The position numbers were made by a program, and so were the translations under genes. DNA of 64,000 bases, taken from NCBI GenBank assembly GCA_032718475.1, contig JAUCBJ010002753.1, positions 1 to 64,000 of the forward strand, read 5' to 3'. Each line of letters opens with the position of its first letter. Within the stretch, counting starts at the first letter, position 1. This DNA comes from Nemertoderma westbladi. Taxonomy: Eukaryota > Animalia > Xenacoelomorpha. Positions 1 to 52,539 of the stretch are shown in pieces. The notes beneath the pieces are model-generated. The model searched no databases. It saw only the letters and a list, made by a program, of their open reading frames with translations, and was not told the DNA's origin.

Positions 1-3000
1 CAGGTAGGAGAATGTAACGGGATGACATTACCGATAAAACCGTCGCACAGGTAGGAGAATGTAACGGGATGACATTACCGATAAAACCGTCGCACAGGTA
101 GGAGAATGTAACGGGATGACATTACCGATAAAACCGTCGCACAGGTAGGAGAATGTAACGGGATGACATTACCGATAAAACCGTCGCACAGGTAGGAGAA
201 TGTAACGGGATGACATTGCCGATAAAACCGTCGCACAGGTAGGAGAATGTAACGGGATGACATTACCGATAAAACCGTCGCACAGGTAGGAGAATGTAAC
301 GGGATGACATTACCGATAAAACCGTCGCACAGGTAGGAGAATGTAACGGGATGACATTACCGATAAAACCGTCGCACAGGTAGGAGAATGTAACGGGATG
401 ACATTACCGATAAAACCGTCGCACAGGTAGGAGAATGTAACGGGATGACATTACCGATAAAACCGTCGCACAGGTAGGAGAATGTAACGGGATGACATTA
501 CCGATAAAACCGTCGCACAGGTAGGAGAATGTAACGGGATGACATTACCGATAAAACCGTCGCACAGGTAGGAGAATGTAACGGGATGACATTACCGATA
601 AAACCGTCGCACAGGTAGGAGAATGTAACGGGATGACATTACCGATAAAACCGTCGCACAGGTAGGAGAATGTAACGGGATGACATTACCGATAAAACCG
701 TCGCACAGGTAGGAGAATGTAACGGGATGACATTACCGATAAAACCGTCGCACAGGTAGGAGAATGTAACGGGATGACATTACCGATAAAACCGTCGCAC
801 AGGTAGGAGAATGTAACGGGATGACATTACCGATAAAACCGTCGCACAGGTAGGAGAATGTAACGGGATGACATTACCGATAAAACCGTCGCACAGGTAG
901 GAGAATGTAACGGGATGACATTACCGATAAAACCGTCGCACAGGTAGGAGAATGTAACGGGATGACATTACCGATAAAACCGTCGCACAGGTAGGAGAAT
1001 GTAACGGGATGACATTACCGATAAAACCGTCGCACAGGTAGGAGAATGTAACGGGATGACATTACCGATAAAACCGTCGCACAGGTAGGTGAATGTAACG
1101 GGATGACATTACAGATAAAACCGTCGCACAGGTAGGAGAATGTAACGGGATGACATTACCGATAAAACCGTCGCACAGGTAGGAGAATGTAACGGGATGA
1201 CATTACAGATAAAACCGTCGCACAGGTAGGAGAATGTAACGGGATGACATTACCGATAAAACCGTCGCACAGGTAGGAGAATGTAACGGGATGACATTAC
1301 AGATAAAACCGTAGCACAGGTAGGAGAATGTAACGGGATGACATTACCGATAAAACCGTCGCACAGGTAGGAGAATGTAACGGGATGACATTACCGATAA
1401 AACCGTCGCACAGGTAGGAGAATGTAACGGGATGACATTACCGATAAAACCGTCGCACAGGTAGGAGAATGTAACGGGATGACATTACCGATAAAACCGT
1501 CGCACAGGTAGGAGAATGTAACGGGATGACATTACCGATAAAACCGTCGCACAGGTAGGAGAATGTAACGGGATGACATTACCGATAAAACCGTCGCACA
1601 GGTAGGTGAATGTAACGGGATGACATTACAGATAAAACCGTCGCACAGGTAGGAGAATGTAATGGGATGACATTACCGATAAAACCGTCGCACAGGTAGG
1701 AGAATGTAACGGGATGACATTACAGATAAAACCGTCGCACAGGTAGGAGAATGTAACGGGATGACATTACCGATAAAACCGTCGCACAGGTAGGAGAATG
1801 TAACGGGATGACATTACAGATAAAACCGTAGCACAGGTAGGAGAATGTAACGGGATGACATTTCCGATAAAACCGTCGCACAGGTAGGAGAATGTAACGG
1901 GATGACATTAACATTACCGATAAAACCGTCGCACAGGTAGGAGAATGTAACGGGATGACATTACCGATAAAACCGTCGCACAGGTAGGAGAATGTAACGG
2001 GATGACATTACCGATAAAACCGTCGCACAGGTAGGAGAATGTAACGGGATGACATTACCGATAAAACCGTCGCACAGGTAGGAGAATGTAACGGGATGAC
2101 ATTACCGATAAAACCGTCGCACAGGTAGGAGAATGTAACGGGATGACATTAACATTACCGATAAAACCGTCGCTCGGGTAGGAGAATGTAACGGGATGAC
2201 ATTACCGATAAAACCGTCGCACAGGTAGGAGAATGTAACGGGATGACATTACCGATAAAACCGTCGCACAGGTAGGAGAATGTAACGGGATGACATTACC
2301 GATAAAACCGTCGCACAGGTAGGAGAATGTAACGGGATGACATTACCGATAAAACCGTCGCACAGGTAGGAGAATGTAACGGGATGACATTACCGATAAA
2401 ACCGTCGCACAGGTAGGAGAATGTAACGGGATGACATTACCGATAAAACCGTCGCACAGGTAGGAGAATGTAACGGGATGACATTACCGATAAAACCGTC
2501 GCACAGGTAGGATAATGTAACGGGATGACATTACCGATAAAACCGTCGCACAGGTAGGAGAATGTAACGGGATGACATTACCGATAAAACCGTCGCACAG
2601 GTAGGAGAATGTAACGGGATGACATTACCGATAAAACCGTCGCACAGGTAGGAGAATGTAACGGGATGACATTGCCGATAAAACCGTCGCACAGGTAGGA
2701 GAATGTAACGGGATGACATTGTCGATAAAACCGTCGCACAGGTAGGAGAATGTAACGGGATGACATTACCGATAAAACCGTCGCACAGGTAGGAGAATGT
2801 AACGGGATGACATTGCCGATAAAACCGTCGCACAGGTAGGAGAATGTAACGGGATGACATTACCGATAAAACCGTCGCACAGGTAGGAGAATGTAACGGG
2901 ATGACATTACCGATAAAACCGTCGCACAGGTAGGAGAATGTAACGGGATGACATTACCGATAAAACCGTCGCACAGGTAGGAGAATGTAACGGGATGACA

Positions 3001-6000
3001 TTACCGATAAAACCGTCGCACAGGTAGGAGAATGTAACGGGATGACATTACCGATAAAACCGTCGCTCAGGTAGGAGAATGTAACGGGATGACATTAACA
3101 TTACCGATAAAACCGTCGCACAGGTAGGAGAATGTAACGGGATGACATTACCGATAAAACCGTCGCACAGGTAGGAGAATGTAACGGGATGACATTACCG
3201 ATAAAACCGTCGCACAGGTAGGTGAATGTAACGGGATGACATTACCGATAAAACCGTCGCACAGGTAGGAGAATGTAACGGGATGACATTACCGATAAAA
3301 CCGTCGCACAGGTAGGAGAATGTAACGGGATGACATTACCGATAAAACCGTCGCACAGGTAGGAGAATGTAACGGGATGACATTACCGATAAAACCGTCG
3401 CACAGGTAGGAGAATGTAACGGGATGACATTACCGATAAAACCGTCGCACAGGTAGGAGAATGTAACGGGATGACATTACCGATAAAACCGTCGCACAGG
3501 TAGGAGAATGTAACGGGATGACATTACCGATAAAACCGTCGCACAGGTAGGAGAATGTAACGGGATGACATTACCGATAAAACCGTCGCACAGGTAGGAG
3601 AATGTAACGGGATGACATTACCGATAAAACCGTCGCACAGGTAGGAGAATGTAACGGGATGACATTACCGATAAAACCGTCGCACAGGTAGGAGAATGTA
3701 ACGGGATGACATTACCGATAAAACCGTCGCACAGGTAGGAGAATGTAACGGGATGACATTACCGATAAAACCGTCGCACAGGTAGGAGAATGTAACGGGA
3801 TGACATTACCGATAAAACCGTCGCACAGGTAGGAGAATGTAACGGGATGACATTACCGATAAAACCGTCGCACAGGTAGGAGAATGTAACGGGATGACAT
3901 TACCGATAAAACCGTCGCACAGGTAGGAGAATGTAACGGGATGACATTACCGATAAAACCGTCGCACAGGTAGGAGAATGTAACGGGATGACATTACCGA
4001 TAAAACCGTCGCACAGGTAGGTGAATGTAACGGGATGACATTACAGATAAAACCGTCGCACAGGTAGGAGAATGTAACGGGATGACATTACCGATAAAAC
4101 CGTCGCACAGGTAGGAGAATGTAACGGGATGACATTAACATTACCGATAAAACCGTCGCACAGGTAGGAGAATGTAACGGGATGACATTACCGATAAAAC
4201 CGTCGCACAGGTAGGAGAATGTAACGGGATGACATTACCGATAAAACCGTCGCACAGGTAGGAGAATGTAACGGGATGACATTACCGATAAAACCGTCGC
4301 ACAGGTAGGAGAATGTAACGGGATGACATTACCGATAAAACCGTCGCACAGGTAGGAGAATGTAACGGGATGACATTACCGATAAAACCGTCGCACAGGT
4401 AGGAGAATGTAACGGGATGACATTACCGATAAAACCGTCGCACAGGTAGGAGAATGTAACGGGATGACATTACCGATAAAACCGTCGCACAGGTAGGAGA
4501 ATGTAACGGGATGACATTAACATTACCGATAAAACCGTCGCTCGGGTAGGAGAATGTAACGGGATGACATTACCGATAAAACCGTCGCACAGGTAGGAGA
4601 ATGTAACGGGATGACATTACCGATAAAACCGTCGCACAGGTAGGAGAATGTAACGGGATGACATTACCGATAAAACCGTCGCACAGGTAGGAGAATGTAA
4701 CGGGATGACATTACCGATAAAACCGTCGCACAGGTAGGAGAATGTAACGGGATGACATTACCGATAAAACCGTCGCACAGGTAGGAGAATGTAACGGGAT
4801 GACATTACCGATAAAACCGTCGCACAGGTAGGAGAATGTAACGGGATGACATTACCGATAAAACCGTCGCACAGGTAGGAGAATGTAACGGGATGACATT
4901 ACCGATAAAACCGTCGCACAGGTAGGAGAATGTAACGGGATGACATTACCGATAAAACCGTCGCACAGGTAGGAGAATGTAACGGGATGACATTACCGAT
5001 AAAACCGTCGCACAGGTAGGATAATGTAACGGGATGACATTACCGATAAAACCGTCGCACAGGTAGGAGAATGTAACGGGATGACATTACCGATAAAACC
5101 GTCGCACAGGTAGGAGAATGTAACGGGATGACATTACCGATAAAACCGTCGCACAGGTAGGAGAATGTAACGGGATGACATTGCCGATAAAACCGTCGCA
5201 CAGGTAGGAGAATGTAACGGGATGACATTGTCGATAAAACCGTCGCACAGGTAGGAGAATGTAACGGGATGACATTACCGATAAAACCGTCGCACAGGTA
5301 GGAGAATGTAACGGGATGACATTGCCGATAAAACCGTCGCACAGGTAGGAGAATGTAACGGGATGACATTACCGATAAAACCGTCGCACAGGTAGGAGAA
5401 TGTAACGGGATGACATTACCGATAAAACCGTCGCACAGGTAGGAGAATGTAACGGGATGACATTACCGATAAAACCGTCGCACAGGTAGGAGAATGTAAC
5501 GGGATGACATTACCGATAAAACCGTCGCACAGGTAGGAGAATGTAACGGGATGACATTACCGATAAAACCGTCGCACAGGTAGGAGAATGTAACGGGATG
5601 ACATTACCGATAAAACCGTCGCTCAGGTAGGAGAATGTAACGGGATGACATTAACATTACCGATAAAACCGTCGCACAGGTAGGAGAATGTAACGGGATG
5701 ACATTGCCGATAAAACCGTCGCACAGGTAGGAGAATGTAACGGGATGACATTACCGATAAAACCGTCGCACAGGTAGGAGAATGTAACGGGATGACATTA
5801 CCGATAAAACCGTCGCACAGGTAGGAGAATGTAACGGGATGACATTGCCGATAAAACCGTCGCACAGGTAGGAGAATGTAACGGGATGACATTACCGATA
5901 AAACCGTCGCACAGGTAGGAGAATGTAACGGGATGACATTACCGATAAAACCGTCGCACAGGTAGGAGAATGTAACGGGATGACATTACCGATAAAACCG

Positions 6001-9000
6001 TCGCACAGGTAGGAGAATGTAACGGGATGACATTACCGATAAAACCGTCGCACAGGTAGGAGAATGTAACGGGATGACATTACCGATAAAACCGTCGCAC
6101 AGGTAGGAGAATGTAACGGGATGACATTACCGATAAAACCGTCGCACAGGTAGGAGAATGTAACGGGATGACATTACCGATAAAACCGTCGCACAGGTAG
6201 GTGAATGTAACGGGATGACATTACAGATAAAACCGTCGCACAGGTAGGAGAATGTAACGGGATGACATTACAGATAAAACCGTAGCACAGGTAGGAGAAT
6301 GTAACGGGATGACATTACCGATAAAACCGTCGCACAGGTAGGAGAATGTAACGGGATGACATTACCGATAAAACCGTCGCACAGGTAGGAGAATGTAACG
6401 GGATGACATTACCGATAAAACCGTCGCACAGGTAGGAGAATGTAACGGGATGACATTACCGATAAAACCGTCGCACAGGTAGGAGAATGTAACGGGATGA
6501 CATTACCGATAAAACCGTCGCACAGGTAGGAGAATGTAACGGGATGACATTACCGATAAAACCGTCGCACAGGTAGGAGAATGTAACGGGATGACATTAC
6601 CGATAAAACCGTCGCACAGGTAGGAGAATGTAACGGGATGACATTACCGATAAAACCGTCGCACAGGTAGGTGAATGTAACGGGATGACATTACAGATAA
6701 AACCGTCGCACAGGTAGGAGAATGTAACGGGATGACATTACCGATAAAACCGTCGCACAGGTAGGAGAATGTAACGGGATGACATTACAGATAAAACCGT
6801 CGCACAGGTAGGAGAATGTAACGGGATGACATTACCGATAAAACCGTCGCACAGGTAGGAGAATGTAACGGGATGACATTACAGATAAAACCGTAGCACA
6901 GGTAGGAGAATGTAACGGGATGACATTACCGATAAAACCGTCGCACAGGTAGGAGAATGTAACGGGATGACATTACCGATAAAACCGTCGCACAGGTAGG
7001 GGAATGTAACGGGATGACATTACCGATAAAACCGTCGCACAGGTAGGAGAATGTAACGGGATGACATTACCGATAAAACCGTCGCACAGGTAGGAGAATG
7101 TAACGGGATGACATTACCGATAAAACCGTCGCACAGGTAGGAGAATGTAACGGGATGACATTACCGATAAAACCGTCGCACAGGTAGGTGAATGTAACGG
7201 GATGACATTACAGATAAAACCGTCGCACAGGTAGGAGAATGTAATGGGATGACCTTACCGATAAAACCGTCGCACAGGTAGGAGAATGTAACGGGATGAC
7301 ATTACAGATAAAACCGTCGCACAGGTAGGAGAATGTAACGGGATGACATTACCGATAAAACCGTCGCACAGGTAGGAGAATGTAACGGGATGACATTACA
7401 GATAAAACCGTAGCACAGGTAGGAGAATGTAACGGGATGACATTTCCGATAAAACCGTCGCACAGGTAGGAGAATGTAACGGGATGACATTAACATTACC
7501 GATAAAACCGTCGCACAGGTAGGAGAATGTAACGGGATGACATTACCGATAAAACCGTCGCACAGGTAGGAGAATGTAACGGGATGACATTACCGATAAA
7601 ACCGTCGCACAGGTAGGAGAATGTAACGGGATGACATTACCGATAAAACCGTCGCACAGGTAGGAGAATGTAACGGGATGACATTACCGATAAAACCGTC
7701 GCACAGGTAGGAGAATGTAACGGGATGACATTAACATTACCGATAAAACCGTCGCTCGGGTAGGAGAATGTAACGGGATGACATTACCGATAAAACCGTC
7801 GCACAGGTAGGAGAATGTAACGGGATGACATTACCGATAAAACCGTCGCACAGGTAGGAGAATGTAACGGGATGACATTACCGATAAAACCGTCGCACAG
7901 GTAGGAGAATGTAACGGGATGACATTACCGATAAAACCGTCGCACAGGTAGGAGAATGTAACGGGATGACATTACCGATAAAACCGTCGCACAGGTAGGA
8001 GAATGTAACGGGATGACATTACCGATAAAACCGTCGCACAGGTAGGAGAATGTAACGGGATGACATTACCGATAAAACCGTCGCACAGGTAGGATAATGT
8101 AACGGGATGACATTACCGATAAAACCGTCGCACAGGTAGGAGAATGTAACGGGATGACATTACCGATAAAACCGTCGCACAGGTAGGAGAATGTAACGGG
8201 ATGACATTACCGATAAAACCGTCGCACAGGTAGGAGAATGTAACGGGATGACATTGCCGATAAAACCGTCGCACAGGTAGGAGAATGTAACGGGATGACA
8301 TTGTCGATAAAACCGTCGCACAGGTAGGAGAATGTAACGGGATGACATTACCGATAAAACCGTCGCACAGGTAGGAGAATGTAACGGGATGACATTGCCG
8401 ATAAAACCGTCGCACAGGTAGGAGAATGTAACGGGATGACATTACCGATAAAACCGTCGCACAGGTAGGAGAATGTAACGGGATGACATTACCGATAAAA
8501 CCGTCGCACAGGTAGGAGAATGTAACGGGATGACATTACCGATAAAACCGTCGCACAGGTAGGAGAATGTAACGGGATGACATTACCGATAAAACCGTCG
8601 CACAGGTAGGAGAATGTAACGGGATGATATTACTGATAAAACCGTCGCTCAGGTAGGAGAATGTAACGGGATGACATTAACATTACCGATAAAACCGTCG
8701 CACAGGTAGGAGAATGTAACGGGATGACATTACCGATAAAACCGTCGCACAGGTAGGAGAATGTAACGGGATGACATTACCGATAAAACCGTCGCACAGG
8801 TAGGTGAATGTAACGGGATGACATTACCGATAAAACCGTCGCACAGGTAGGAGAATGTAACGGGATGACATTACCGATAAAACCGTCGCACAGGTAGGAG
8901 AATGTAACGGGATGACATTACCGATAAAACCGTCGCACAGGTAGGAGAATGTAACGGGATGACATTACCGATAAAACCGTCGCACAGGTAGGAGAATGTA

Positions 9001-11500
9001 ACGGGATGACATTACCGATAAAACCGTCGCACAGGTAGGAGAATGTAACGGGATGACATTACCGATAAAACCGTCGCACAGGTAGGAGAATGTAACGGGA
9101 TGACATTACCGATAAAACCGTCGCACAGGTAGGAGAATGTAACGGGATGACATTACCGATAAAACCGTCGCACAGGTAGGAGAATGTAACGGGATGACAT
9201 TACCGATAAAACCGTCGCACAGGTAGGAGAATGTAACGGGATGACATTACCGATAAAACCGTCGCACAGGTAGGAGAATGTAACGGGATGACATTACCGA
9301 TAAAACCGTCGCACAGGTAGGAGAATGTAACGGGATGACATTACCGATAAAACCGTCGCACAGGTAGGAGAATGTAACGGGATGACATTACCGATAAAAC
9401 CGTCGCACAGGTAGGAGAATGTAACGGGATGACATTACCGATAAAACCGTCGCACAGGTAGGAGAATGTAACGGGATGACATTACCGATAAAACCGTCGC
9501 ACAGGTAGGAGAATGTAACGGGATGACATTACCGATAAAACCGTCGCACAGGTAGGAGAATGTAACGGGATGACATTACCGATAAAACCGTCGCACAGGT
9601 AGGTGAATGTAACGGGATGACATTACAGATAAAACCGTCGCACAGGTAGGAGAATGTAACGGGATGACATTACCGATAAAACCGTCGCACAGGTAGGAGA
9701 ATGTAACGGGATGACATTAACATTACCGATAAAACCGTCGCACAGGTAGGAGAATGTAACGGGATGACATTACCGATAAAACCGTCGCACAGGTAGGAGA
9801 ATGTAACGGGATGACATTACCGATAAAACCGTCGCACAGGTAGGAGAATGTAACGGGATGACATTACCGTTAAAACCGTCGCACAGGTAGGAGAATGTAA
9901 CGGGATGACATTACCGATAAAACCGTCGCACAGGTAGGAGAATGTAACGGGATGACATTACCGATAAAACCGTCGCACAGGTAGGAGAATGTAACGGGAT
10001 GACATTACCGATAAAACCGTCGCACAGGTAGGAGAATGTAACGGGATGACATTACCGATAAAACCGTCGCACAGGTAGGAGAATGTAACGGGATGACATT
10101 AACATTACCGATAAAACCGTCGCTCGGGTAGGAGAATGTAACGGGATGACATTACCGATAAAACCGTCGCACAGGTAGGAGAATGTAACGGGATGACATT
10201 ACCGATAAAACCGTCGCACAGGTAGGAGAATGTAACGGGATGACATTACCGATAAAACCGTCGCACAGGTAGGAGAATGTAACGGGATGACATTACCGAT
10301 AAAACCGTCGCACAGGTAGGAGAATGTAACGGGATGACATTACCGATAAAACCGTCGCACAGGTAGGAGAATGTAACGGGATGACATTACCGATAAAACC
10401 GTCGCACAGGTAGGAGAATGTAACGGGATGACATTACCGATAAAACCGTCGCACAGGTAGGAGAATGTAACGGGATGACATTACCGATAAAACCGTCGCA
10501 CAGGTAGGAGAATGTAACGGGATGACATTACCGATAAAACCGTCGCACAGGTAGGAGAATGTAACGGGATGACATTACCGATAAAACCGTCGCACAGGTA
10601 GGATAATGTAACGGGATGACATTACCGATAAAACCGTCGCACAGGTAGGAGAATGTAACGGGATGACATTACCGATAAAACCGTCGCACAGGTAGGAGAA
10701 TGTAACGGGATGACATTACCGATAAAACCGTCGCACAGGTAGGAGAATGTAACGGGATGACATTGCCGATAAAACCGTCGCACAGGTAGGAGAATGTAAC
10801 GGGATGACATTGTCGATAAAACCGTCGCACAGGTAGGAGAATGTAACGGGATGACATTACCGATAAAACCGTCGCACAGGTAGGAGAATGTAACGGGATG
10901 ACATTGCCGATAAAACCGTCGCACAGGTAGGAGAATGTAACGGGATGACATTACCGATAAAACCGTCGCACAGGTAGGAGAATGTAACGGGATGACATTA
11001 CCGATAAAACCGTCGCACAGGTAGGAGAATGTAACGGGATGACATTACCGATAAAACCGTCGCACAGGTAGGAGAATGTAACGGGATGACATTACCGATA
11101 AAACCGTCGCACAGGTAGGAGAATGTAACGGGATGACATTACCGATAAAACCGTCGCACAGGTAGGAGAATGTAACGGGATGACATTACCGATAAAACCG
11201 TCGCTCAGGTAGGAGAATGTAACGGGATGACATTAACATTACCGATAAAACCGTCGCACAGGTAGGAGAATGTAACGGGATGACATTGCCGATAAAACCG
11301 TCGCACAGGTAGGAGAATGTAACGGGATGACATTACCGATAAAACCGTCGCACAGGTAGGAGAATGTAACGGGATGACATTACCGATAAAACCGTCGCAC
11401 AGGTAGGAGAATGTAACGGGATGACATTGCCGATAAAACCGTCGCACAGGTAGGAGAATGTAACGGGATGACATTACCGATAAAACCGTCGCTCAGGTAG
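1..11500 (+). repeat. 47-bp minisatellite (CAGGTAGGAGAATGTAACGGGATGACATTACCGATAAAACCGTCGCA)n, about 244 copies, runs off the left edge
   Basis: Near-perfect tandem unit read directly; rare variants include a 6-bp insertion (CATTAACATTA) and GTGAAT, TTACAG, TTGCCG, GCTCGG substitutions; ends at GCTCAGGTAG. Confidence 0.99.
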
Positions 11501-11639
11501 AAAGAGAAAAACAACAAATGTGTGAGTGAGTTTAGTAAATGAACATGTTGTGGGATTGGGAGGACCGAGTATTAGGACATAGTCTTCGCATGTTCGTTTG
11601 TTATTATTTATAATATTGTAGTAATGCATTGTATTACAG

Positions 11640-11763
11640 AGTGAACCCCATTAGAGGAGACAACACTGACAACATGGGAGTCATAGAAATCCTAGATCTC
11701 TTGAATAAACACGTCGCTAGTGGTTTCTCTAGCATTAAACAAGCCTTTCTCTCATTCGATAAT
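11640..11763 (+). CDS. EFCAB6: EFCAB6-like exon 1 (window numbering)
   Basis: tattacag|A GTG AAC ... GAT AAT|gtaagt; (R)VNPIRGD...KQAFLSFDN; preceded by a phase-2 intron. Confidence 0.85.
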
Positions 11764-23700: not shown

Positions 23701-26700
23701 GGACACCACACACAAGTGGTTTAACACCTTGTGGGACACCAACACACAAGTGGTTTAACACCTTGTGGGACACCACACACAAGTGGTTTAACACCTTGTG
23801 GGACACCAACACATAAGTGGTTTAACACCTTGTGGGACACCACACACAAGTGGTTTAACACCTTGTGGGACACCAACCCACAAGTGGTTTAACACCTTGT
23901 GGGACACTACACACAAGTGGTTTAACACCTTGTGGGACACCACACACAAGTGGTTTAACACCTTGTGGGACACCACACACAAGTGGTTTAACACCTTGTG
24001 GGACACCACACACAAGTGGTTTAACACCTTGTGGGACACCACACACAAGTGGTTTAACACCTTGTGGGACACCACACACAAGTGGTTTAACACCTTGTGG
24101 GATACCAACATACAAGTGGTTTAACACCTTGTGGGACACCACACACAAGTGGTTTATCACCTTGTGGGACACCACACACAAGTGGTTTAACACCTTGTGG
24201 GACACCACACACAAGTGGTTTAACACCTTGTGGGACACCAACACACAAGTGGTTTAACACCTTGTGGGACACCACACACAAGTGGTTTAACACCTTGTGG
24301 GACACCAACCCACAAGTGGTTTAACACCTTGTGGGACACTACACACAAGTTGTTTAACACCTTGTGGGACACCACACACAAGTGGTTTAACACCTTGTGG
24401 GACACTACACACAAGTGGTTTAACACCTTGTGGGACACCACACACAAGTGGTTTAACACCTTGTGGGATACCAACATACAAGTGGTTTAACACCTTGTGG
24501 GACACCACACACAAGTGGTTTATCACCTTGTGGGACACCACACACAAGTGGTTTAACACCTTGTGGGACACCACACACAAGTGGTTTAACACCTTGTGGG
24601 ACACCACACACAAGTGGTTTAACACCTTGTGGGACACCACACACAAACACCTTGTGGGACACCACACACAAGTGGTTTAACACCTTGTGGGACACAACAC
24701 ACAAGTGGTTTAAAGGTTGAGGTGAAATCGCCTATTGACACAATTTGTGTTCTAGAATTAAGATAGCTGGATAATAATTGGTGTGGGAGGCCTCGGATAC
24801 CATATGCGGATAATTTGTGGAGCAAAATGTTATGGTGTAGGGTATCGAAGGCTTTTTTAAAATCGATATATATTGCACAAGTTGAGTTTTTATTGTCTAG
24901 GGCGTATACGATTACACAGATACAACTTATTTACAAACGTCTCGCAGCATCTGTAAATAATGTAATTATTGTAATTTATTTTCCGTTGTAAAATTTTTAT
25001 TATAAAAAATTATTATTAAATTTAAATTATTATATTTTGTTGTTGGATGTGTCACCGCATGGAGAGCCAGCGATCACGATTCGATGATCGGTTACTTAGC
25101 GAAAAAGAGATTTTAGTTTCTATATATTATACCATATATTTTTAATCTTTTATATAATGTTATTTTAACTGTCGATATAAAGTAAATGTTACAGTTTCTG
25201 TAATTTTAATTATAATGTTACTGTCACCAGTTACGTTAGTAACCAACCGATTAAAAAATGTGTAACAAATCATTAACCAAACCAAGTTACGGTATCTTTT
25301 TATTTCTTAATTTCTCAGACATTGCGTGAAGCTTTCTATAAGATGGATGCAGACCACGATGGGTTCATACGACGAGCAGACTTCCGGCAAATAATGGACC
25401 AGTTTATGTTCTACATCGACGATACGCAGTTCAGGAAGTACATGGAGCATCTCGGTATCACACCTAAAAGTCGTCTAGGATATCGGGATTTCCTTAACTT
25501 ATTCGAAGAAAAGGAAACCGCACCAACGTGGCTCGATTCTAAACACAGGTAGGGGTGTTAGAACCAAAGTGGCTCGATTCTAAACACAGGTAGGGGTGTT
25601 AGCACCAACGTGGCTCGATTCTAAACACATGTAGGGGTGTTAGCACCACGTGGCTCCTTTCTAGCACCACACAGGTAGGGGTGTTAGCACCAACATGGCT
25701 CGATTCTAAAAATAGGTAGAGGTGTTAGCACCACTTGGCTCAATTCTAAACACAGGTAGGGGTGTTAGCACCAACGTGGCTCGATCCTAAACACAGATAG
25801 GGGTGTTAGCACCACGTGGCTCCTTTCTAGCACCACTTGGCTCGATTCTAAACACAGGTAGGGGTGTTAGCACCACTTGGCTCGATTCTAAACACAGGTA
25901 GGGGTGTTAGCACCAACGTGGCTCGATTCTAAACACAGGTAGGGGTGTTAGCACCAACGTGACTTGATTCTAAACACAGGTAGGGGTGTTAGCACCACTT
26001 GGCTCGGTTCTAAACACAGGTAGGGGTGTTAGCACCAACGTGGCTCGATTCTAAACACAGATAGGGGTGTTAGCACCACGTGGCTCCTTTCTAGCACCAC
26101 TTGGCTCGATTCTAAACACAGGTAGGGGTGTTAGCACCACTTGGCTCGATTCTAAACACAGGTAGGGGTGTTAGCACCAACGTGGCTCGATTCTAAACAC
26201 AGGGAGGGGTGTTAGAACCACGTGGCTCCTTTTAGCACCACTTGGCTCGATTCTAAACACAGGTAGGAGTGTTAGCACCACTTGGCTCGATTCTAAACAC
26301 AGGTAGGGGTGTTAGCACCAACGTGGCTCGATTCCAAACACAGGTAGGGGTGTTAGAACCACGTGGCTCCTTTCTAGCACCACTTGGCTCGATTCTAAAC
26401 ACAGGTAGGTGTGTTAGCACCACTTGGCTCGATTCTAAACACAGGTAGGGGTGTTAGCACCAACGTGGCACGATTCTAAACACAGGTAGGGGTGTTAGCA
26501 CCAACATGGCTCGATTCTAAAAATAGGTAGAGGTGTTAGCACCACTTGGCTCGATTCTAAACACAGGTAGGGGTGTTAGCACCAACGTGGCTCGATTCTA
26601 AACACAGGTAGGGGTGTTAGCACCACGTGGCTCCTTTCTAGCACCACTTGGCTCGATTCTAAACACAGGTAGGAAGTGTTAGCACCACTTGGCTCCATTC

Positions 26701-29700
26701 TAAACACAGGTAGGGGTGTTAGCACCAACGTGGCTCGATTCCAAACACAGGTAGGGGTGTTAGCACCACTTGGCTCGATTCTAAACACAGGTAGGGGTGT
26801 TAGCACCAACGTGGCTCGATTCTAAACACAGGTAGGGGTGTTAGAACCACGTGGCTCCTTTTTAGCACCACTTAGCTCGATTCTAAACACAGGTAGGGGT
26901 GTTAGCACCAACGTGGCTCGATTCCAAACACAGGTAGGGGTGTTAGCACCACTTGGCTCGATTCTAAACACAGGTAGGGGTGTTAGCACCAACGTGGCTC
27001 GATTCTAAACACAGGTAGGGGTGTTAGAACCACGTGGCTCCTTTTTAGCACCACTTAGCTCGATTCTAAACACAGGTAGGGGTGTTAGCACCACTTGGCT
27101 CGATTCTAAACACAGGTAGGGGTGTTAGCACCAACGTGGCTCGATTCTAAACACAGGTAGGGGTGTTAGAACCACGTGGCTCCTTTCTAGCACCACTTGG
27201 CTCGATTCTAAACACAGGTAGGGGTGTTAGCACCACTTGGCTCGATTCTAAACACAGGTAGGGGTGTTAGCACCAACGTGGCTCGATTCTAAACACAGGT
27301 AGGGGTGTTAGAACCACGTGGCTCCTTTTTAGCACCACTTAGCTCGATTCTAAACACAGGTAGGTGTGTTAGCACCACTTGGCTCGATTCTAAAAATAGG
27401 TAGGGGTGTTAGCACCACGTGGCTCCTTTCTAGCACCACTTGCCTCGATTCTAAACACAGGTAGGGGTGTTAGCACCACTTAGCTCGATTCTAAACACAG
27501 GTAGGGGTGTTAGCACCACTTGACTCGATTCTAAACACAGGTAGGGGTGTTAGCACCACTTGACTCGATTCTAAACACAGGTAGGGGTGTTAGCACCAAC
27601 GTGGCTCGATTCTAAACACAGGTAGGGGTGTTAGAACCACGTGGCTCCTTTCTAGCACCACTTGGCTCGATTATAAACACAGGTAGGTGTGTTAGCACCA
27701 CTTGGCTCGATTCTAAACACAGGTAGGGGTGTTAGCACCAACGTGGCTCGATTCTAAACACAGGTAGGGGTGTTAGCACCAACATGGCTCGATTCTAAAA
27801 ATAGGTAGAGGTGTTAGCACTACTTGGCTCGATTCTAAACACAGGTAGGGGTGTTAGCACCAACGTGGCTCGATTTTAAACACAGGTAGGGGTGTTAGAA
27901 CCACGTGGCTCCTTTTTAGCACCACTTAGCTCGATTCTAAACACAGGTAGGTGTGTTAGCACCACTTGGCTCGATTCTAAAAATAGGTAGGGGTGTTAGC
28001 ACCATTTGGCTCGATTCTAAAAATAGGTAGGGGTGTTAGAACCACGTGGCTCCTTTCTAGCACCACTTGGCTCGATTCTAAACACAGGTAGAGGTGTTAG
28101 CACCAACGTGGCTCGATTCTAAACACAGGTAGGGGTGTTAGCACCACGTGGCTCCTTTCTAGCACCACTTAGCTCGATTTTAAACACAGGTAGGGGTGTT
28201 AGCACCACTTGACTCGATTCTAAACACAGGTAGGGGTGTTAGCACCAACGTGGCTCGATTCTAAACACAGGTAGGGGTGTTAGAACCACGTGGCTCCTTT
28301 CTAGCACCACTTGGCTCGATTATAAACACAGGTAGGTGTGTTAGCACCACTTGGCTCGATTCTAAACACAGGTAGGGGTGTTAGCACCAACGTGGCTCGA
28401 TTCTAAACACAGGTAGGGGTGTTAGCACCAACATGGCTCGATTCTAAAAATAGGTAGAGGTGTTAGCACTACTTGGCTCGATTCTAAACACAGGTAGGGG
28501 TGTTAGCACCAACGTGGCTCGATTCTAAACACAGGTAGGGGTGTTAGCACCAACATGGCTCGATTCTAAAAATAGGTAGAGGTGTTAGCACTACTTGGCT
28601 CGATTCTAAACACAGGTAGGGGTGTTAGCACCAACGTGGCTCGATTCTAAACACAGGTAGGGGTGTTAGAACCACGTGGCTCCTTTTTAGCACCACTTAG
28701 CTCGATTCTAAACACAGGTAGGTGTGTTAGCACCATTTGGCTCGATTCTAAAAATAGGTAGGGGTGTTAGCACCACGTGGCTCCTTTCTAGCACCACTTG
28801 CCTCGATTCTAAATACAGGTAGGGGTGTTAGCACCACTTAGCTCGATTCTAAACACAGGTAGGGGTGTTAGCACCACTTGACTCGATTCTAAACACAGGT
28901 AGAGGTGTTAGCACCAACGTGGCTCGATTCTAAACACAGGTAGGGGTGTTAGAACCACGTGGCTCCTTTCTAGCACCACTTGGCTCGATTCTAAACACAG
29001 GTAGGGGTGTTAGCACCAACGTGGCTCGATTCTAAACACAGGTAGGGGTGTTAGAACCACGTGGCTCCTTTCTAGCACCACTTGGCTCGATTATAAACAC
29101 AGGTAGGTGTGTTAGCACCACTTGGCTCGATTCTAAACACAGGTAGGGGTGTTAGCATCAACGTGGCTCGATTCTAAACACAGGTAGGGGTGTTAGCACC
29201 AACATGGCTCGATTCTAAAAATAGGTAGAGGTGTTAGCACCAACGTGGCTCGATTCCAAACACAGGTAGGGGTGTTAGAACCACGTGGCTCCTTTCTAGC
29301 ACCACTTGGCTCGATTCTAAACACTGGTAGGGGTGTTAGCACCATTTGGCTCGATTCTAAAAATAGGTAGGGGTGTTAGCACCACGTGGCTCCTTTCTAG
29401 CACCACTTGGCTCGATTCTAAACACTGGTAGGGGTGTTAGCACCACTTGGCTCGATTCTAAACACAGGTAGGGGTGTTAGCACCAACGTGGCTCGATTCC
29501 AAACACAGGTAGGGGTGTTAGAACCACGTGGCTCCTTTCTAGCACCACTTGGCTCGATTCTAAACACTGGTAGGGGTGTTAGCACCATTTGGCTCGATTC
29601 TAAAAATAGGTAGGGGTGTTAGAACCACGTGGCTCCTTTCTAGCACCACTTGGCTCGATTCTAAACACTGGTAGGGGTGTTAGCACCATTTGGCTCGATT

Positions 29701-32700
29701 CTAAAAATAGGTAGGGGTGTTAGAACCACGTGGCTCCTTTCTTGCACCACTTGGCTCGATTATAAACACAGGTAGGTGTGTTAGCACCACTTGGCTCGAT
29801 TCTAAACACAGGTAGGGGTGTTAGCATCAACGTGGCTCGATTCTAAACACAGGTAGGGGTGTTAGCACCAACATGGCTCGATTCTAAAAATAGGTAGAGG
29901 TGTTAGCACCAACGTGGCTCGATTCCAAACACAGGTAGGGGTGTTAGAACCACGTGGCTCCTTTCTAGCACCACTTGGCTCGATTCTAAACACTGGTAGG
30001 GGTGTTAGCACCATTTGGCTCGATTCTAAAAATAGGTAGGGGTGTTAGCACCACGTGGCTCCTTTCTAGCACCACTTGGCTCGATTCTAAACACTGGTAG
30101 GGGTGTTAGCACCACTTGGCTCGATTCTAAACACAGGTAGGGGTGTTAGCACCAACGTGGCTCGATTCTAAACACAGGTAGGGGTGTTAGCACCAACATG
30201 GCTCGATTCTAAAAATAGGTAGAGGTGTTAGCACCACTTGGCTCGATTCTAAACACAGGTAGGGGTGTTAGCACCAACGTGGCTCGATTCTAAACACAGG
30301 TAGGGGTGTTAGCACCACGTGGCTCCCTTCTAGCACCACTTGGCTCGATTCTAAACACAGGTAGGAGTGTTAGCACCACTTGGCTCGATTCTAAACACAG
30401 GTAGGGGTGTTAGCACCAACGTGGCTCGATTCCAAACACAGGTAGGGGTGTTAGTGTTAGAACCACGTGGCTCCTTTCTAGCACCACTTGGCTCGATTCT
30501 AAACACAGGTAGGGGTATTAGCACCACTTGGCTCGATTCTAAAAATAGGTAGGGGTGTTAGCACCACGTGGCTCCTTTCTAGCACCACTTGGCTCGATTC
30601 TAAACACTGGTAGGGGTGTTAGCACCACTTGGCTCGATTCTAATCACAGGTAGGGGTGTTAGCACCAACGTGGCTCGATTCTAAACACAGGTAGGGGTGT
30701 TAGCACCAACATGGCTCGATTCTAAAAATAGGTAGAGGTGTTAGCACCACTTGGCTCGATTCTAAACACAGGTAGGGGTGTTAGCACCAACGTGGCTCGA
30801 TTCTAAACACAGGTAGGGGTGTTAGCACCACGTGGCTCCTTTCTAGCACCCCTTGGCTCGATTATAAACACAGGTAGGAGTGTTAGCACCACTTGTCTCG
30901 ATTCTAAACACAGGTAGGGGTGTTAGCACCAACGTGGCTCGATTCTAAACACAGGTAGGGGTGTTAGAACCACGTGGCTCCTTTCTAGCACCACTTGGCT
31001 CGATTCTAAACACAGGTATGGGTGTTAGCACCACTTGGCTCGATTCTAAAAATAGGTAGGGGTGTTAGCACCAACGTGGCTCGATTCTAAACACAGGTAG
31101 GGGTGTTAGAACCACGTGGCTCCTTTCTAGCACCACTTGGCTTGATTCTAAACACAGGTAGGTGTGTTAGCACCACTTGGCTCGATTCTAAACACAGGTA
31201 GGGGTGTTAGCACCAACGTGGCTCGATTCCAAACACAGGTAGGGGTGTTAGCACCACGTGGCTCCTTTCTAGCACCACTTGGCTCGATTCTAAACACAGG
31301 TAGGGGTGTTAGCACCAACGTGGCTCGATTCTAAACACAGGTAGGGGTGTTAGCACCAACGTGGCTCGATTCTAAACACAGGTAGGGGTGTTAGCACCAC
31401 TTGGCTCGATTCTAAACACAGGTAGGGGTGTTAGCTCCACGTGGCTCCTTTCTAGCACCACTTGGCTCGATTCTAAACACAGGTAGGGGTGTTAGCACCA
31501 ACGTGGCTCGATTCTAAACACAGGTAGGGGTGTTAGCACCAACGTGGCTCGATTCTAAACACAGGTAGGGGTGTTAGCACCAACGTGGCTCGATTCTAAA
31601 CACAGGTAGGGGTGTTAGCACCACTTGGCTCGATTCTAAACACAGGTAGGTGTGTTAGCACCAATGTGGCTCGATTCTAAACACAGGTAGGTGTGTTAGC
31701 ACCAACGTGGCTCGATTCTAAGGACAGGTAGGGGTGTTAGCACCACTTGGCTCGATTCTAAACACAGGTAGGTGTGTTAGCACCAACATGGCTCGATTCT
31801 AAACACAGGTAGGTGTGTTAGCACCAACGTGGCTCGATTCTAAACACAGGTAAGGGTGTTAGAACCAAAGTGGCTCGATTCTAAACACAGGTAGGGGTGT
31901 TAGCACCACTTGGCTCGATTCTAAACACAGGTAGGTGTGTTAGCACCAACGTGGCTCGATTCTAAGCAAAGGTGGGGGTGTTAGCACCAATGTGATGTCA
32001 CATATCTCCAGTGCCACAACAAATTTTGTAACACTTCCATTGAATCTCAGTTTCTGAGATTATTGTCGAAAATTCATGTTATGTAGTGTGAATTATAATC
32101 AGAGGTTAATGTGAATTATTTATTAATAATTTTGTTGATAATATGGTTTATTATAAGTGTATAAGCTTAAAACTTCAGTTTATATAATTTCCTAAATATT
32201 ATTTTTTAATAATTAGTAATTATGCGTTAATTAGGTATAATGATACATATGACCCTTGTGAACTCGGTGCGGGTCAGGTTCATGAGATGCTCAAATCTAA
32301 AGCTAGAGGGCGCTTCCATGATTTGTCACGTGCGTTCGGAGCACTGGTCGCACGTGATGGTGGTTACATCACGAAGAAACACTTCCAGCGGATGTTGTGG
32401 CAGTTCAACTTGCCTATGACTCCGGGCGAATTCGATAAGCTCTGGAGGCGGTGAGTTTAATATGGTTGGCTATTTGAAAATATGTCGCGAAATCTATGTA
32501 ATTATTTTACATAATTACAAATAGCCAACCTGCGTCAACGGATTGGTTCTGTGTGCAGGCAGGTAATGCTGCTTGTATCAAGGAATCGTTTGGCCCAGGC
32601 ATGGGAGTCTTACAGAGATAATTATGGGCCCTAGATTCGGCATCCATTGTCATTTGTCATTTCCATAGTATTTCCTTACCAGTTTTAATGTGATAATTTT

Positions 32701-35700
32701 TTTTTATTATTATTTTAATTTTTTTTTATTTTTTTCTTTCAGTTTGTGATATCTGCAAATTCTTACTCGTCCTATTAACGCTTTACCTTTATATTCTCTT
32801 ATATCTTACTGTGGTTTTTAAAATTTAATATTAATTTGTGTAATTTATAGGCCTATTTGGTTTCGTAATATTTTGGTATAATTTAGTGTATTTTAACCAT
32901 TCATCTTTCCTAATATGTTGATTAAAATTTGTGTAATTTAGACAAACGTGTATGAAATTGTGCTGTACACTTTGTGAACTGTATGTATTATTATTATTTA
33001 TTCATTTATTAATTCACAACGATTAACAAATACAAAAATTAATACTGACATTATTTTTATTCTTAAATTGTTACTTTTTCGCTCGAATATACTAGTGGTT
33101 AAACGGGATCAGACTCTTCGGGATTTCCGGGATCGGGACCGGGATTATCACTCTCGGGATCCCGATTTTCGGCATCGGGATTCGAATTTTGAATTCGATT
33201 TTCTTAAAGTTTTCAGTATATTATATTACTGTGTTCGTATAAAACGGATTTTTGGCGAAATTATATCACTTTATTTCATACTGCTGAAATATTTTGTCTG
33301 ATAAAATATAATAAAATTTATTTATAGTTGATTACTGGAATCCAGTAATCCGACAATTCGATGTAATCAATAGATTTCTCTTCATCGCGATTCTCTCGTC
33401 CCTTTATTAACCTCGCTGGCGTTCGTTAAATTAAATGCCTCGGGAATAATGAAAAAAAGTTCTACCTTTTTTTTTTTTTTTAATAAAGATTCTTATTTCC
33501 AGTAAAATAATGCAATTTAGCTATCAGCATTAGGAATTATTGTTGAAAGGGAAATTTTGTGAAATAAGATTTTGTATTGCAGGAAAGATTCTTCCCCTAT
33601 TGAACTCTTGATAATTAACCTAGCTCGCTTCGCAAAGACTACATCACAGTGTCAGGGGGAAAATACCCCTTTGTTTTCCGTGTAATAATAACTAATTATT
33701 TATCTTTTATCTTTCAACGTATAATAGATAAATATCGATGTATTTGGAGAAAGTTTCTCACAATTTTGTTTATCGTTTACTTCATATATTCGCATTTTGT
33801 TTCTCCGTTTAGCTACGATGCGGACGGGGCTGGTAAACTTTCCTTCAAGGCTTTCCAACAGCTCCTCGGGCTGGAGTTCTCGCCTGGGGACAACCACGGC
33901 GTGTCTCGTCGGATAGCCGAAGGTAGTGCGGAGGCGTTCACGGTCCATCTAGCTGGGCAGGAGGAGCGCCAGGAAGGAATGGCGGTCCAACAGATGAGAG
34001 CGACAAGTATACTCACCGCCCGGGAGGTAGAGGAACACCTCAAGTGAGTTGCATATTGTCCTCATATTGTCCTGGACCTTATAGTCTTTATTATCCGCAC
34101 TTTGCGGACACTACAGGGGATATTTTAAAGAAAGAAAATTATGATAATTTTTTTTATCAAACATAATAATTTATTCGTTTAATATTATCGCAGGGATCGT
34201 TTTAGAGATAATTACCAGGACCTCCACGCCGCCTTTAGGAAGGTCGACCTCAATAAAGACGGATTCTTGTCAGTGCAAGAATTCCAGAAAGTTCTCGCGG
34301 ATATGAATTACATTATGGATATGGAGACCTTCATCGAATTACTCGAAAGGTATGTTACCGTGCTTTATGCGAACAGCTCTTTGTACACCAGATATTCCAA
34401 GATATTCAATAGTGTTATGGTTATTGTCATGGAACCAGAGGCTCTTGGATTTTATTCTAGAATATATTTTAATAAACACAATTTAGATATTTTCTACAGT
34501 AGGCCTTTCTGATATTCGAATTGCTAATATAATATTAATCACATTGAATCGGTAATAGTTAATTTTAGAGGTTGTTAAATTTATATTTTCAGTCTCGGAT
34601 CATTAATTCAATAATTATCAATTAATTTATCGAGCTGAATTTTTCAGAGTAGATACCTAAGATCCGAGGAATAACATCGAATTCTACACTCATCATCATT
34701 CTCATCAGTTATATGGCTATAGTACTCTATGCTGATTGCCTGTATATATTTTATAACATATAACATAATAACACTTAGTGTTATATGTCATGAGCAAAAA
34801 GTCTCAAAGACTACTTACTACATTGGTTCAAGGCATTCTAGAACCGTGGAAAATGTCCTAGAACATTGCAAAATATTATAGAACAGTGCTAAATGTTCTA
34901 GAACAGTTCAAAAGCTTCTAGAATAGTGCACAATCTTCTATAGCAGTTCAAAGGGTTCTATATAGTGCCAATTGTTTTATAAAAGTTCAAAAGGTTCTAG
35001 AATAGTGCAAAATGTTCTAGTGCAGGGTAAATGATATTTTTAATTCTATTTATCCGGTTTAGTTTGTATTTATGAATGTGCATGTAGTATATCTACCAAT
35101 TACAAAAAGTAATTACTATTATTATGATGTAGTGCAGGGAGACCTCAAGTGACAATATTATAATATATAAACCACAGTTTTAGCAAGCTTTCACACACAG
35201 GGCTTCTTCCGGCTAAGAGTACAATAAAATTGAGCACCGAAAAAGCTTGGAAAATCTACGTGAAAGCTAGCTAGAACTGTGGGCTATTTATTTGTAGTCA
35301 TTTGAGGTCTCCCCGCATTAGTAATAGTAATCACGATCACACTAGTGGCGAGAGCGGGTCGGTATTTGTATACTGATTACTAAAAGCAGTGTATGAATTC
35401 ATGGTTTCCTGTGTCACATGTTATTCCTGTAGGACCTAGGCAAGTACTTACTCTGAGTAATTCAACTTTATAAACATTTACTTGATATATTTCACTATAC
35501 ATTTTTGGGATTAATCTGCGATAAGTTTATTCTCAACAGCTGTAACTTTTTGAGTCGGTAAGTTTAGATTTTGCTTGAATTGTGTGACATTATTTCCTTA
35601 ACTGGATCTTAAACATTTTATAGGAAAAAGCTCAGTCTGATCAATGAAATCAAACTTTAATAATGTATTACGGTAAATTGTTTATATGTTTTAAATATTT

Positions 35701-38700
35701 TACGGTAAATATTTTAGTCTTATATAGAAATATTTGACCGTTACAGGCTAGGTTTATAGAAACATTTGTCCGTTACAGGCTAGGTTTATAAAAACATTTG
35801 TCCGTTACAGGCTAGGTTTATAGAAACATTTGTCCGTTACAGGCTAGGTTTATAAAAACATTTGTCCGTTACAGGCTAGGTTTATAGAAGCATTTGTCCA
35901 TTACATGCTAGGTTTATAGAAACATTTGTCCGTTACAGGCTAGGTTTATAGAAACATTTGTCCATTACAGGCTAGGTTTATAAAGACATTTGTCCGTTAC
36001 AGGCTAGGTTTATAGAAGCATTTGTCCGTTACAGGCTAGGTTTATATAAACATTTGTCCGTTACAGGCTAGGTTTATAGAAACATTTGTCCATTACAGGC
36101 TAGGTTTATAAAGACATTTATCCGTTACAGGCTAGGTTTATAAAAACATTTGTCCGTTACAGGCTAGGTTTATAGAAGCATTTGTCCATTACATGCTAGG
36201 TTTATAGAAACATTTGTCCGTTACAGGCTAGGTTTATAGAAACATTTGTCCATTACAGGCTAGGTTTATAAAGACATTTGTCCGTTACAGGCTAGGTTTA
36301 TAGAAGCATTTGTCCGTTACAGGCTAGGTTTATATAAACATTTGTCCGTTACAGGCTAGGTTTATAGAAACATTTGTCCATTACAGGCTAGGTTTATAAA
36401 GACATTTATCCGTTACAGGCTAGGTTTATAGAAACATTTGTCGGTTACAGGCTAGGTTTATATAAACATTTGTCCGTTACAGGCTAGGTTTATAGAAGCA
36501 TTTGTCCATTACATGCTAGGTTTATAAAGACATTTGTCCGTTACAGGCTAGGTTTATAGAAACATTTGTCCGTTACAGGCTAGGTTTATATAAACATTTG
36601 TCCGTTACAGGCTAGGTTTATAGAAGCATTTGTCCATTACATGCTAGGTTTATAAAGACATTTGTCCGTTACAGGCTAGGTTTATAGAAACATTTGTCCG
36701 TTACAGGCTAGGTTTATAGAAGCATTTGTCCATTACAGGCTAGGTTTATAGAAGCATTTGTCCATTACATGCTAGGTTTATAAAGACATTTGTCCGTTAC
36801 AGGCTAGGTTTATAGAAACATTTGTCCGTTACAGGCTAGGTTTATAGAAGCATTTGTCCATTACAGGCTAGGTTTATAAAGACATTTGTCCGTTACAGGC
36901 TAGGTTTATAGAAACATTTGTCCGTTACAGGCTAGGTTTATAGAAACATTTGTCCGTTACAGGCTAGGTTTATATAAACATTTGTCCGTTACAGGCTAGG
37001 TTTATAGAAGCATTTGTCCATTACAGGCTAGGTTTATAAAGACATTTGTCCGTTACAGGCTAGGTTTATAGAAACATTTGTCCGTTACAGGCTAGGTTTA
37101 TAGAAACATTTGTCCGTTACAGGCTAGGTTTATATAAACATTTGTCCGTTACAGGCTAGGTTTATAGAAACATTTGTCCGTTACAGGCTAGGTTTATAGA
37201 AGCATTTGTCCATTACAGGCTAGGTTTATAAAGACACTTGTCCGTTACAGGCTAGGTTTATAGAAACATTTGTCCGTTACAGGCTAGGTTTATAGAAGCA
37301 TTTGTCCATTACAGGCTAGGTTTATAAAGACATTTGTCCGTTACAGGCTAGGTTTATAGAAGCATTTGTCCATTACAGGCTAGGTTTATAAAGACATTTG
37401 TCCGTTACAGGCTAGGTTTATAGAAACATTTATCCGTTACAGGCTAGGTTTATATAAACATTTGTCCGTTACAGGCTAGGTTTATAGAATCATTTATCCG
37501 TTACAGGCTAGGTTTATAGAAACATTTGTCCGTTACAGGCTAGGTTTATATAAACATTTGTCCGTTACAGGCTAGGTTTACCAACAAACGAATCTCGCTT
37601 TTCCTACACTCGTTTTCTGGAGGCTATAGACGAAGGAATGCATCCGCGGTTCAAACGCCAAGCCGTTTTCGCAGAAGGTCCTGAACATTTTGAACATATG
37701 AGTGTCAGCAATGCGATGGCGAAGCTCGCTGAGAGAACTACGAACAACATGAAAGCTATCGTTTCTGTGAGTTTCCGTTACTTAGTCCCGGACTTATTGT
37801 TTATTGTTCTGAAACGTTATTTGTTTTTTGCTTTCTAGTAATTATTTAGTAGGCTGTGTTCGTTATATTTCTCGCAACAGTAGGAGTCGGTTTACTAGCG
37901 GAGCGCAAAGAGGCAAGTGAAGTAGACAAGAAGTACTTTTATCAACGGGATTTATGTAATTATATTCAAAAATTGAAACATATATTTCCGACTTTCCGAT
38001 GAGGCACTGTTTAAAATAAAATTAATTAAATATAAATAATTTCATTTACAGGTACCGTACAGTGTTTATCGCCAATACTACTGTTTGATATGCTGATTGA
38101 TACCGGAACAACAGCACAGTATATATTGTATATGAATCTGAAACTAAAATTTTACAATAGCTGTAGTACCGGTACCTTGGTTCACTTATTGTAATAATTT
38201 GAGTGTGAGCGGCAGATAAGGGGATATTTTCGACGCAATAAAAATTCATATTAATTCGCCGGATATTAATTTGCCAACATGGGATTTGCGTCCAGTTTCC
38301 CCCCGGACATAAAATATAAACTTTTTTGACGTTGTTGAAACTGACAGAGGTAATAAATGTTTCAACTTTTTAATAAATAATATTAATAATAATGCTTAAA
38401 ATTGGACCTCTTCAATCACATCCCTACTTCATTAGGACTATATACACATAAATTCTCCCTTGGTTTAACACAACTGGTCTGGCCGTTTACTATTTATTTA
38501 TTTAGGCTTTCCATTCGTTTGATAAAACTGGAGTGGGACGCGTAAAGGGCCAGGATTTCCGACGAATCCTCGATAACTTCTGTTTCCGTCTCAATGACTC
38601 CCAATGGAACGGTCTGCTCTCTCATCTACACGTCTTTGACGATCTCACACTCAACTACAACGATTTCCTCGAAACATTTGTGTCTGAAGATTCAGTTGTA

Positions 38701-51880: not shown

Positions 51881-52539
51881 ACTAGGTTTTTAGTGTATCA
51901 TTGGGAAAGGGTTAAGGTAATGAAGAGCCAAAGGCGGTTCTCTAGTTTGCAGAAATGTGGACAACCAGGAAAGTTTCCTTTCAATTTGGGTTTAATGGCT
52001 TTGAATAACGCCTCTTTCATTATCTATATAACAATCAATGTCTATTCATATCAATGGCCGTAAGGCCAACACTATTTCCCGTCATTATGAGTGAAAGGAA
52101 AACCAACCCCATGCGAGGGAGTGCCGCATACATTAGGGCCGGCCAACCCAGTATAACACAATGGCTTGGGGCTGCGTTACAAACCCTATGCAACCGCGTG
52201 GATCCACTTTCAATAGATGTGCCGTTATAGTATTGTTGAGCTGATAATGAGATCCAGCCCCATGATCCACTAATGGAAGTGAGATCAATGAACCATCCCT
52301 ATCAGAAAGGCCTTTAATGTAGTCCAATATGCCTATTTTTTATCGGTTATAGATATTATTGCTAATAATGTAGCTTAGCGTAATTAATGGTTTTCTTTTG
52401 GCGACCCCCCCCATGCTGCGTTGAGAGTATATCACTAATTATTGTCAAGTTGGCGTAAAATAAGTCGTGAAATAAAGTATTTAATGTGTTCCTATTGTTT
52501 TGCATTGTAGACTAACGGCGAGTTATATGTCATGGATCA

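Follow-up and report, generated by a model that had tools for sequence, protein, structure and literature searches.

A boundary between an intron and exon 11 of a gene resembling EFCAB6 occurs 58 times, head to tail, within the 64,000-nt stretch of DNA analysed here (the window), and the only transcript assembled splices to the last AG of the resulting array, with exon 11 starting at 37571. In our judgement the array is very probably a boundary-spanning minisatellite of the kind called a 'mirage', whose last copy is spliced and whose extra copies serve as no device but arose from repeat instability and are tolerated. It is likely to represent an unusually large case of a known boundary repeat and not to indicate a new splicing mechanism. 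The features on which this reading rests are listed in Table 1.

Table 1. Positions in the window of the acceptor array, its flanking exons and signals, and the other tandem arrays (a slash in a motif marks the exon junction).
Feature	Position	Strand	Basis or remark
Exon 10 (10th in the window), EF-hand, donor GTATGT at 34350	34194..34349	+	sequence, contig joints, Pfam
Intron, 3,221 nt, GT..AG	34350..37570	+	contig joint
32-nt acceptor array, 58 copies, head to tail, gap-free	35723..37580	+	repeat finder and decamer count
Predicted branch-point A (UUUAU) at -23 of the real acceptor, located in unit 57's exon-derived decamer	37548	+	motif scan
Acceptor AG in use, last of 53	37569..37570	+	joint 34347/37569, cut +2, GT..AG
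Exon 11, 196 nt, LGLPTNESRF...KAIVS, donor GTGAGT at 37767	37571..37766	+	sequence and contig (joint 37766/38506)
Donor-side array, 41-nt unit (CACAG/GTAGGGGTGTTA; 29 nt from the exon end and 12 nt from the intron start), about 158 unit lengths	25520..31994	+	repeat finder, contig
Second donor-side array, 47-nt unit with CAG/GTAGGA, at least 239 copies (239 CAGGTAGG)	1..11500	+	runs off window start
Intronic array copying no junction	12118-14625		begins 73 nt past donor
Intronic array copying no junction	43494-47744		begins 42 nt past donor
33-nt array, 43 copies, inside the reverse-transcriptase frame (RVT_1) of an intronic retroelement	23288-24713		minus-strand ORFs 22500-23351 and 24619-24930
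Array beside an ORF, no junction copied	39423-40281		
Array 3' of the last coding exon, no junction copied	49590-51879		

Tandem Repeats Finder describes the acceptor array with a period of 32, 58.1 copies, 92% matches, 0% indels and a score of 3177, and returns exactly the limits within which the first-pass annotation had placed an acceptor amplified about 58 times. The figure of 58 comes from the window's assembly alone, the short-read contigs of three DNA runs (X1-X3) breaking within the array; they enter it from both flanks, reaching 35716-35767 on one side and starting at 37521/37551 on the other. Each unit joins the last 22 nt of the intron to the first 10 nt of exon 11 (GCTAGGTTTA). This decamer is found 58 times, from 35747 to 37571, at a spacing of exactly 32 nt in all 57 intervals, and its final occurrence (37571-37580) coincides with the first 10 nt of exon 11 as defined by the transcript contig. 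The dinucleotide before it is AG in 53 of the 58 copies and AT in the other 5, in agreement with the earlier remark that a few units carry CAT in place of CAG. The further statement that every unit contains the 24-mer TTTGTCCGTTACAGGCTAGGTTTA holds for the decamer but not for the 24-mer, which is exact in only 36 of 58 units. There are 14 unit variants. Across the 58 units, 10 of the 22 positions that derive from the intron are variable, while the 10 that derive from the exon are all constant. A test of this exon-only invariance gives p ~0.01, or 0.08 when four singleton sites are removed, and the constancy of the decamer in all units may be due to chance or to a young array.

Judging from protein comparisons, the host is an EFCAB6-like multi-EF-hand gene on the + strand. 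For the last coding exon three matches were obtained in all, each a named EFCAB6 protein: those of a starfish and a sea cucumber share 53% identity with it, and a seal's shares 44%. No near-identical protein turned up in the database, and the echinoderm character of the best matches weakly suggests that the organism stands near echinoderms and is probably not an amphioxus. A tblastn search with starfish EFCAB6 places residues ~397-1545 in colinear order along the window. EF-hand families of Pfam were detected on four of the five exons scanned, exon 11 being the one without any, and the repeated EF-hand pairs, which include EF-hand_11 (PF08976), lie colinear with named EFCAB6 proteins. The exon-11 peptide, searched among longer proteins, gave no match. 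In the sea-cucumber protein (P0124), exon 10 corresponds to residues 141-190 and exon 11 to residues 193-255. Exon 10 ends with two nucleotides (AG) of a split arginine codon, which reads AG/G across the junction, and the last glutamate together with this arginine fills the two residues between; the alignment (ELLER/LGLPTNESRF against ELLHR LGLPTDKSRL) thus crosses the exon 10/11 junction with no indel. Exon 11 is flanked by introns of 3,221 and 739 nt. The 57 extra units make up 1,824 nt of the former, which leaves an ancestral intron of about 1.4 kb. In the latter, positions 38224-38397 show a word depth of 9,400-19,000 in the DNA runs against ~25-35 nearby and belong to a very high-copy repeat. 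Elsewhere in the gene, the intron between the exons that end at ~19208 and start at 25319 contains genes for tRNA-Val(AAC) (21190-21264) and tRNA-Cys(GCA) (21715-21786) on the + strand. These two tRNAs were the only Rfam matches, and the array had none.

The evidence on the site in use comes from one contig of 2,537 nt, assembled from run X4 at a depth of 55.6. It covers 33812-34043, 34194-34347, 37569-37766 and 38506-38698. It is the only contig, and X4 the only run, to provide RNA evidence; X4 is labelled 'DNA?', and no run recorded as RNA contains the stretch. The contig has three GT..AG joints, namely 34043/34194, 34349/37571 and 37766/38506, the second of which skips 3,221 nt including the whole array. 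All three are absent from DNA runs X1-X3. Because the joints follow GT..AG and the joined form is missing from X1-X3, we take the contig to be spliced RNA and not a retrocopy; in addition, X4 contains a fraction of 0.14 of the sampled words, close to the exon share of the stretch. The first-pass annotation had proposed to weigh the junction 34349/37571 against acceptors shifted by 32 nt, and it is 34349/37571 that the contig displays. No joint into a decoy copy occurs among the joints listed. Assembled contigs lose rare variants, so minor or even substantial use of decoys, combined with decay of the products, is possible.

What a decoy would yield can be read directly. When the frame of exon 10 is continued into the upstream copies, a stop is met in 57 of 57, after four residues (R-L-G-L) in 49 of them and after 12 residues in eight. 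The earlier statement that no AG but the last is productive thus holds, and the transcript uses that same AG. Its companion, that the final copy alone continues in frame as LGLPTNESRF, is confirmed by reading the sequence. Of these 57 upstream copies, 52 retain the AG, each with a branch-point match. Mis-splicing to any of these decoys would run into a stop within four or 12 residues, and nonsense-mediated decay would probably clear the product.

A motif scan finds a single yUnAy match per pair of units, TTTAT (UUUAU), with its A at -23 from the exon start. It arises where the exon-derived GGTTTA abuts the first T of the next unit. As the match is made by the preceding decamer, each interior unit supplies a branch-point match to the next AG. 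The expectation that a branch point farther upstream than about 22 nt must fall in the repeat is thereby borne out, since the only match lies in the decamer of the previous unit. The stretch between the match and the AG is pyrimidine-poor. The last unit is of type H, a variant with eight occurrences, and is accordingly identical to seven other units; the first base that distinguishes the real site from the decoys is +11. Given that the signals from -23 to +10 are all shared with decoys, the mark of the real site must lie beyond +10, in the exon. Masking of the decoys by RNA structure was unsupported: folding gave z = -0.20 when the last units were taken together with the start of the exon, and z = +1.68 for internal units.

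The real site would thus be told by sequence past +10, that is, by the body of the exon and the donor 196 nt downstream, which is predicted to amount to exon definition at an acceptor that is weak and poor in pyrimidines. Acceptors of this weak type rely on exon-bound activators and on the downstream donor. Under exon definition with long flanking introns, the splice sites with the shortest distance between them over the exon are preferred, according to a study on human data (PMC9225289), and the long introns on both sides of exon 11 resemble the situation to which this rule applies. In the same study, where human 3' sites of equal strength compete at a spacing of 20 nt or more, the upstream site is preferred, and exon definition reduces this preference but does not reverse it (PMC9225289). 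As the upstream preference is merely reduced in these human data, proximity alone would be no guarantee that the last of 53 AGs is used exclusively. The first-pass annotation had drawn two conclusions from the arrangement. One, a difficulty for simple first-AG scanning, does not follow: a scan sets out from the branch point, of which every unit has a match, and the array is therefore compatible with scanning; the question becomes which unit of branch point and AG is picked. The other, exon-anchored selection, would come down to ordinary exon definition.

Repeats of this kind have been described in amphioxus. The mirages there duplicate intron-exon boundaries and keep AG or GT in many copies, while regular splicing is undisturbed; the cases named in two papers are Adh3, troponin C, the globins BflGb6 and BflGb9, and PGBD5 (PMC3087553, PMC3902484). 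The array shares their traits: a tandem unit that contains the boundary, an array that ends in the real exon, AG in 53 of 58 copies and use of the exon-adjacent copy. As to the length variation of mirages, the X1-X3 contigs break within the array and internal block duplications show past turnover only. As far as the published descriptions consulted go, the closest match is the BflGb6 mirage, which consists of the 3' intron end plus a 5' portion of exon 2 and thus has the same boundary-spanning head-to-tail unit. In both systems AG is present in many copies and the exon-adjacent one is spliced, and both 5' and 3' boundaries can be affected in amphioxus, as they are in the EFCAB6-like gene. The scale differs: there are 58 units of 32 nt here, and the sister arrays have about 158 and at least 239, compared with three to six units of 150-160 bp reported for BflGb6.

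The other precedent is human. In intron 7 (IVS7) of F7, the first element of a 37-bp VNTR spans the exon 7/IVS7 boundary and the pseudo-sites are functional but silent; the authors explain use of the exon-adjacent donor by 5'-to-3' scanning (PMC1557585). The likeness is that a boundary-spanning minisatellite repeats identical splice sites, of which the exon-adjacent one alone is used. The F7 repeat is a donor array of few copies, whereas the array described here is acceptor-side, where 5'-to-3' scanning would favour the wrong, first copy. The true counterparts of F7 are the donor arrays of the EFCAB6-like gene. A full-text literature search for boundary-spanning arrays yielded amphioxus and human F7 only. 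Two more familiar arrangements resemble the array in part. NAGNAG acceptors are spaced by 3 nt, the choice between them falling at the second catalytic step, and recursive sites require AG/GT. As at NAGNAG sites, several AGs compete for one exon; the units here differ from both arrangements in lying 32 nt apart, in each having a branch-point match of its own and in reading AG/GC at the junction.

The acceptor array does not stand alone. The window contains eight tandem arrays with units of 23-47 nt and lengths of 0.9-11.5 kb, which together amount to 48.7% of its sequence, and five of the eight lie in introns of the EFCAB6-like gene. The array with the 41-nt unit carries 156 AGGTR sites, of which the X4 contig uses the one in the first copy (25548/25549), joined to the exon start at 32235. 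The earlier observation that the acceptor array mirrors the donor arrays is therefore sound, as the first copy is used in the donor array of the same gene. The 47-nt unit encodes ECNGMTLPIKPSHR, which matches residues 397-410 of starfish EFCAB6, and the exon at 11635-11763 matches residues 409-450, right after them; the array that runs off the window start is thus probably a third boundary array whose true exon lies outside the window. The units of both donor-side arrays read CAG/GTAGG, an AG/GT layout of the recursive type, and could in principle be removed stepwise with the mRNA unchanged. The introns holding the arrays at 12118-14625 and 43494-47744 measured only ~285-450 nt before expansion. 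Since one array sits within an RVT_1 frame, minisatellite growth is not confined to splice junctions. The ORF beside another array (40289-40714) looked similar to a reverse transcriptase and was rejected as one, having no Pfam match. Downstream of the gene, reverse-transcriptase frames of a non-LTR-type retroelement extend over 52516-54371 (RVT_1 match on 53279-53830). Further on, an intronless C2H2 zinc-finger ORF of 894 aa occupies 61032-63713 on the + strand; among named proteins it comes nearest to ZNF827-like and further zinc-finger proteins of vertebrates, at no more than 34% identity, and no close orthologue was found.

The array probably originated through unequal exchange or slippage. 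A TTA precedes each of the two breakpoints (GTCTTA^TATAG... upstream and GGTTTA^CCAAC... in the exon), which would fit a microhomology-mediated first duplication. Multi-unit blocks are repeated within it: a block of nine units, 5-13, recurs as units 14-22, and four-unit motifs recur further on, so that the array would have expanded by multi-unit blocks. The five AT copies are one variant unit, type D, which has spread by block duplication, as expected under neutral turnover.

The alternative with most bearing on function is that the array throttles gene dosage: the 52 decoy AGs would be used, the stop-containing RNA degraded, and the copy number would set the amount of productive EFCAB6-like mRNA. 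We consider this unlikely. It draws on the branch-point match and AG retained by 52 of 57 upstream copies, on the exon-derived decamer unchanged in 58 of 58, on the stop behind every decoy and on the general upstream preference among 3' sites seen in human data (PMC9225289). The sole transcript seen nevertheless takes the last AG, the type D units that have lost the AG have spread in the manner expected of neutral turnover, and comparable arrays without any splice site are found in the same genome region. Invariance of the decamer could hint at constraint on the decoys, but the test is weak (p 0.01-0.08). It is equally improbable, in our view, that such a throttle would be heritable and tunable by copy number, with the decamer, as supplier of the branch point, conserved by selection that keeps the decoys competent. 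If the throttle were real, each added unit would divert more of the pre-mRNA to stop-containing transcripts. Minisatellites might instead be started preferentially at junctions by some process tied to splicing or exon boundaries, hence the three boundary arrays, and this we hold to be quite unlikely. Three of the five intragenic arrays that are not linked to a transposon span a junction against 1.16 expected, and for the acceptor array alone the chance of spanning one is 0.044; given the short ancestral introns, though, the probability of three or more of five is 0.067 and not significant. Arrays also occur within a reverse-transcriptase frame, next to a different ORF and past the final coding exon, and random seeding followed by selection against wholly exonic arrays suffices for the pattern.

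That the array or its length is an artefact of mis-assembled long reads is very improbable. No short-read contig crosses it, yet contigs of the three DNA runs, which come from two studies, pass from the unique flanks into the first and last units. Unit-only contigs have depths of 179.8 and 230.7 against ~25-31, and the spliced contig requires the last unit exactly as assembled. Least credible is a recursive removal in which decoy splicing regenerates a donor and the array is taken out in steps, leaving the mRNA unchanged. The AG/GT layout of the donor-array units (CACAG/GTAGGG) speaks for such a route, but a junction in the acceptor array would read AAAG/GCTAGG and offers no GT; the neighbouring CTAG/GTTTAT would add five bases and break the frame. 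The AG/GT of a recursive site is absent here, the sequence being CAG/GCTAGG in all 53 AG copies.

The array amounts to a natural experiment in splice-site choice: 53 acceptors are alike between the branch-point match and +10, and only the one that touches the exon is used in the mature RNA that was seen. The mirror problem is posed by the donor arrays of the same gene, which have ~158 and at least 239 copies. Such arrays will trip up gene predictors as well as assemblies of short reads, which makes them a hazard for annotation. The locus also extends the mirage repeats to a probable non-cephalochordate and to copy numbers far above those in print, and it provides a clean substrate outside the vertebrates on which exon definition can be set against first-come-first-served or scanning models.
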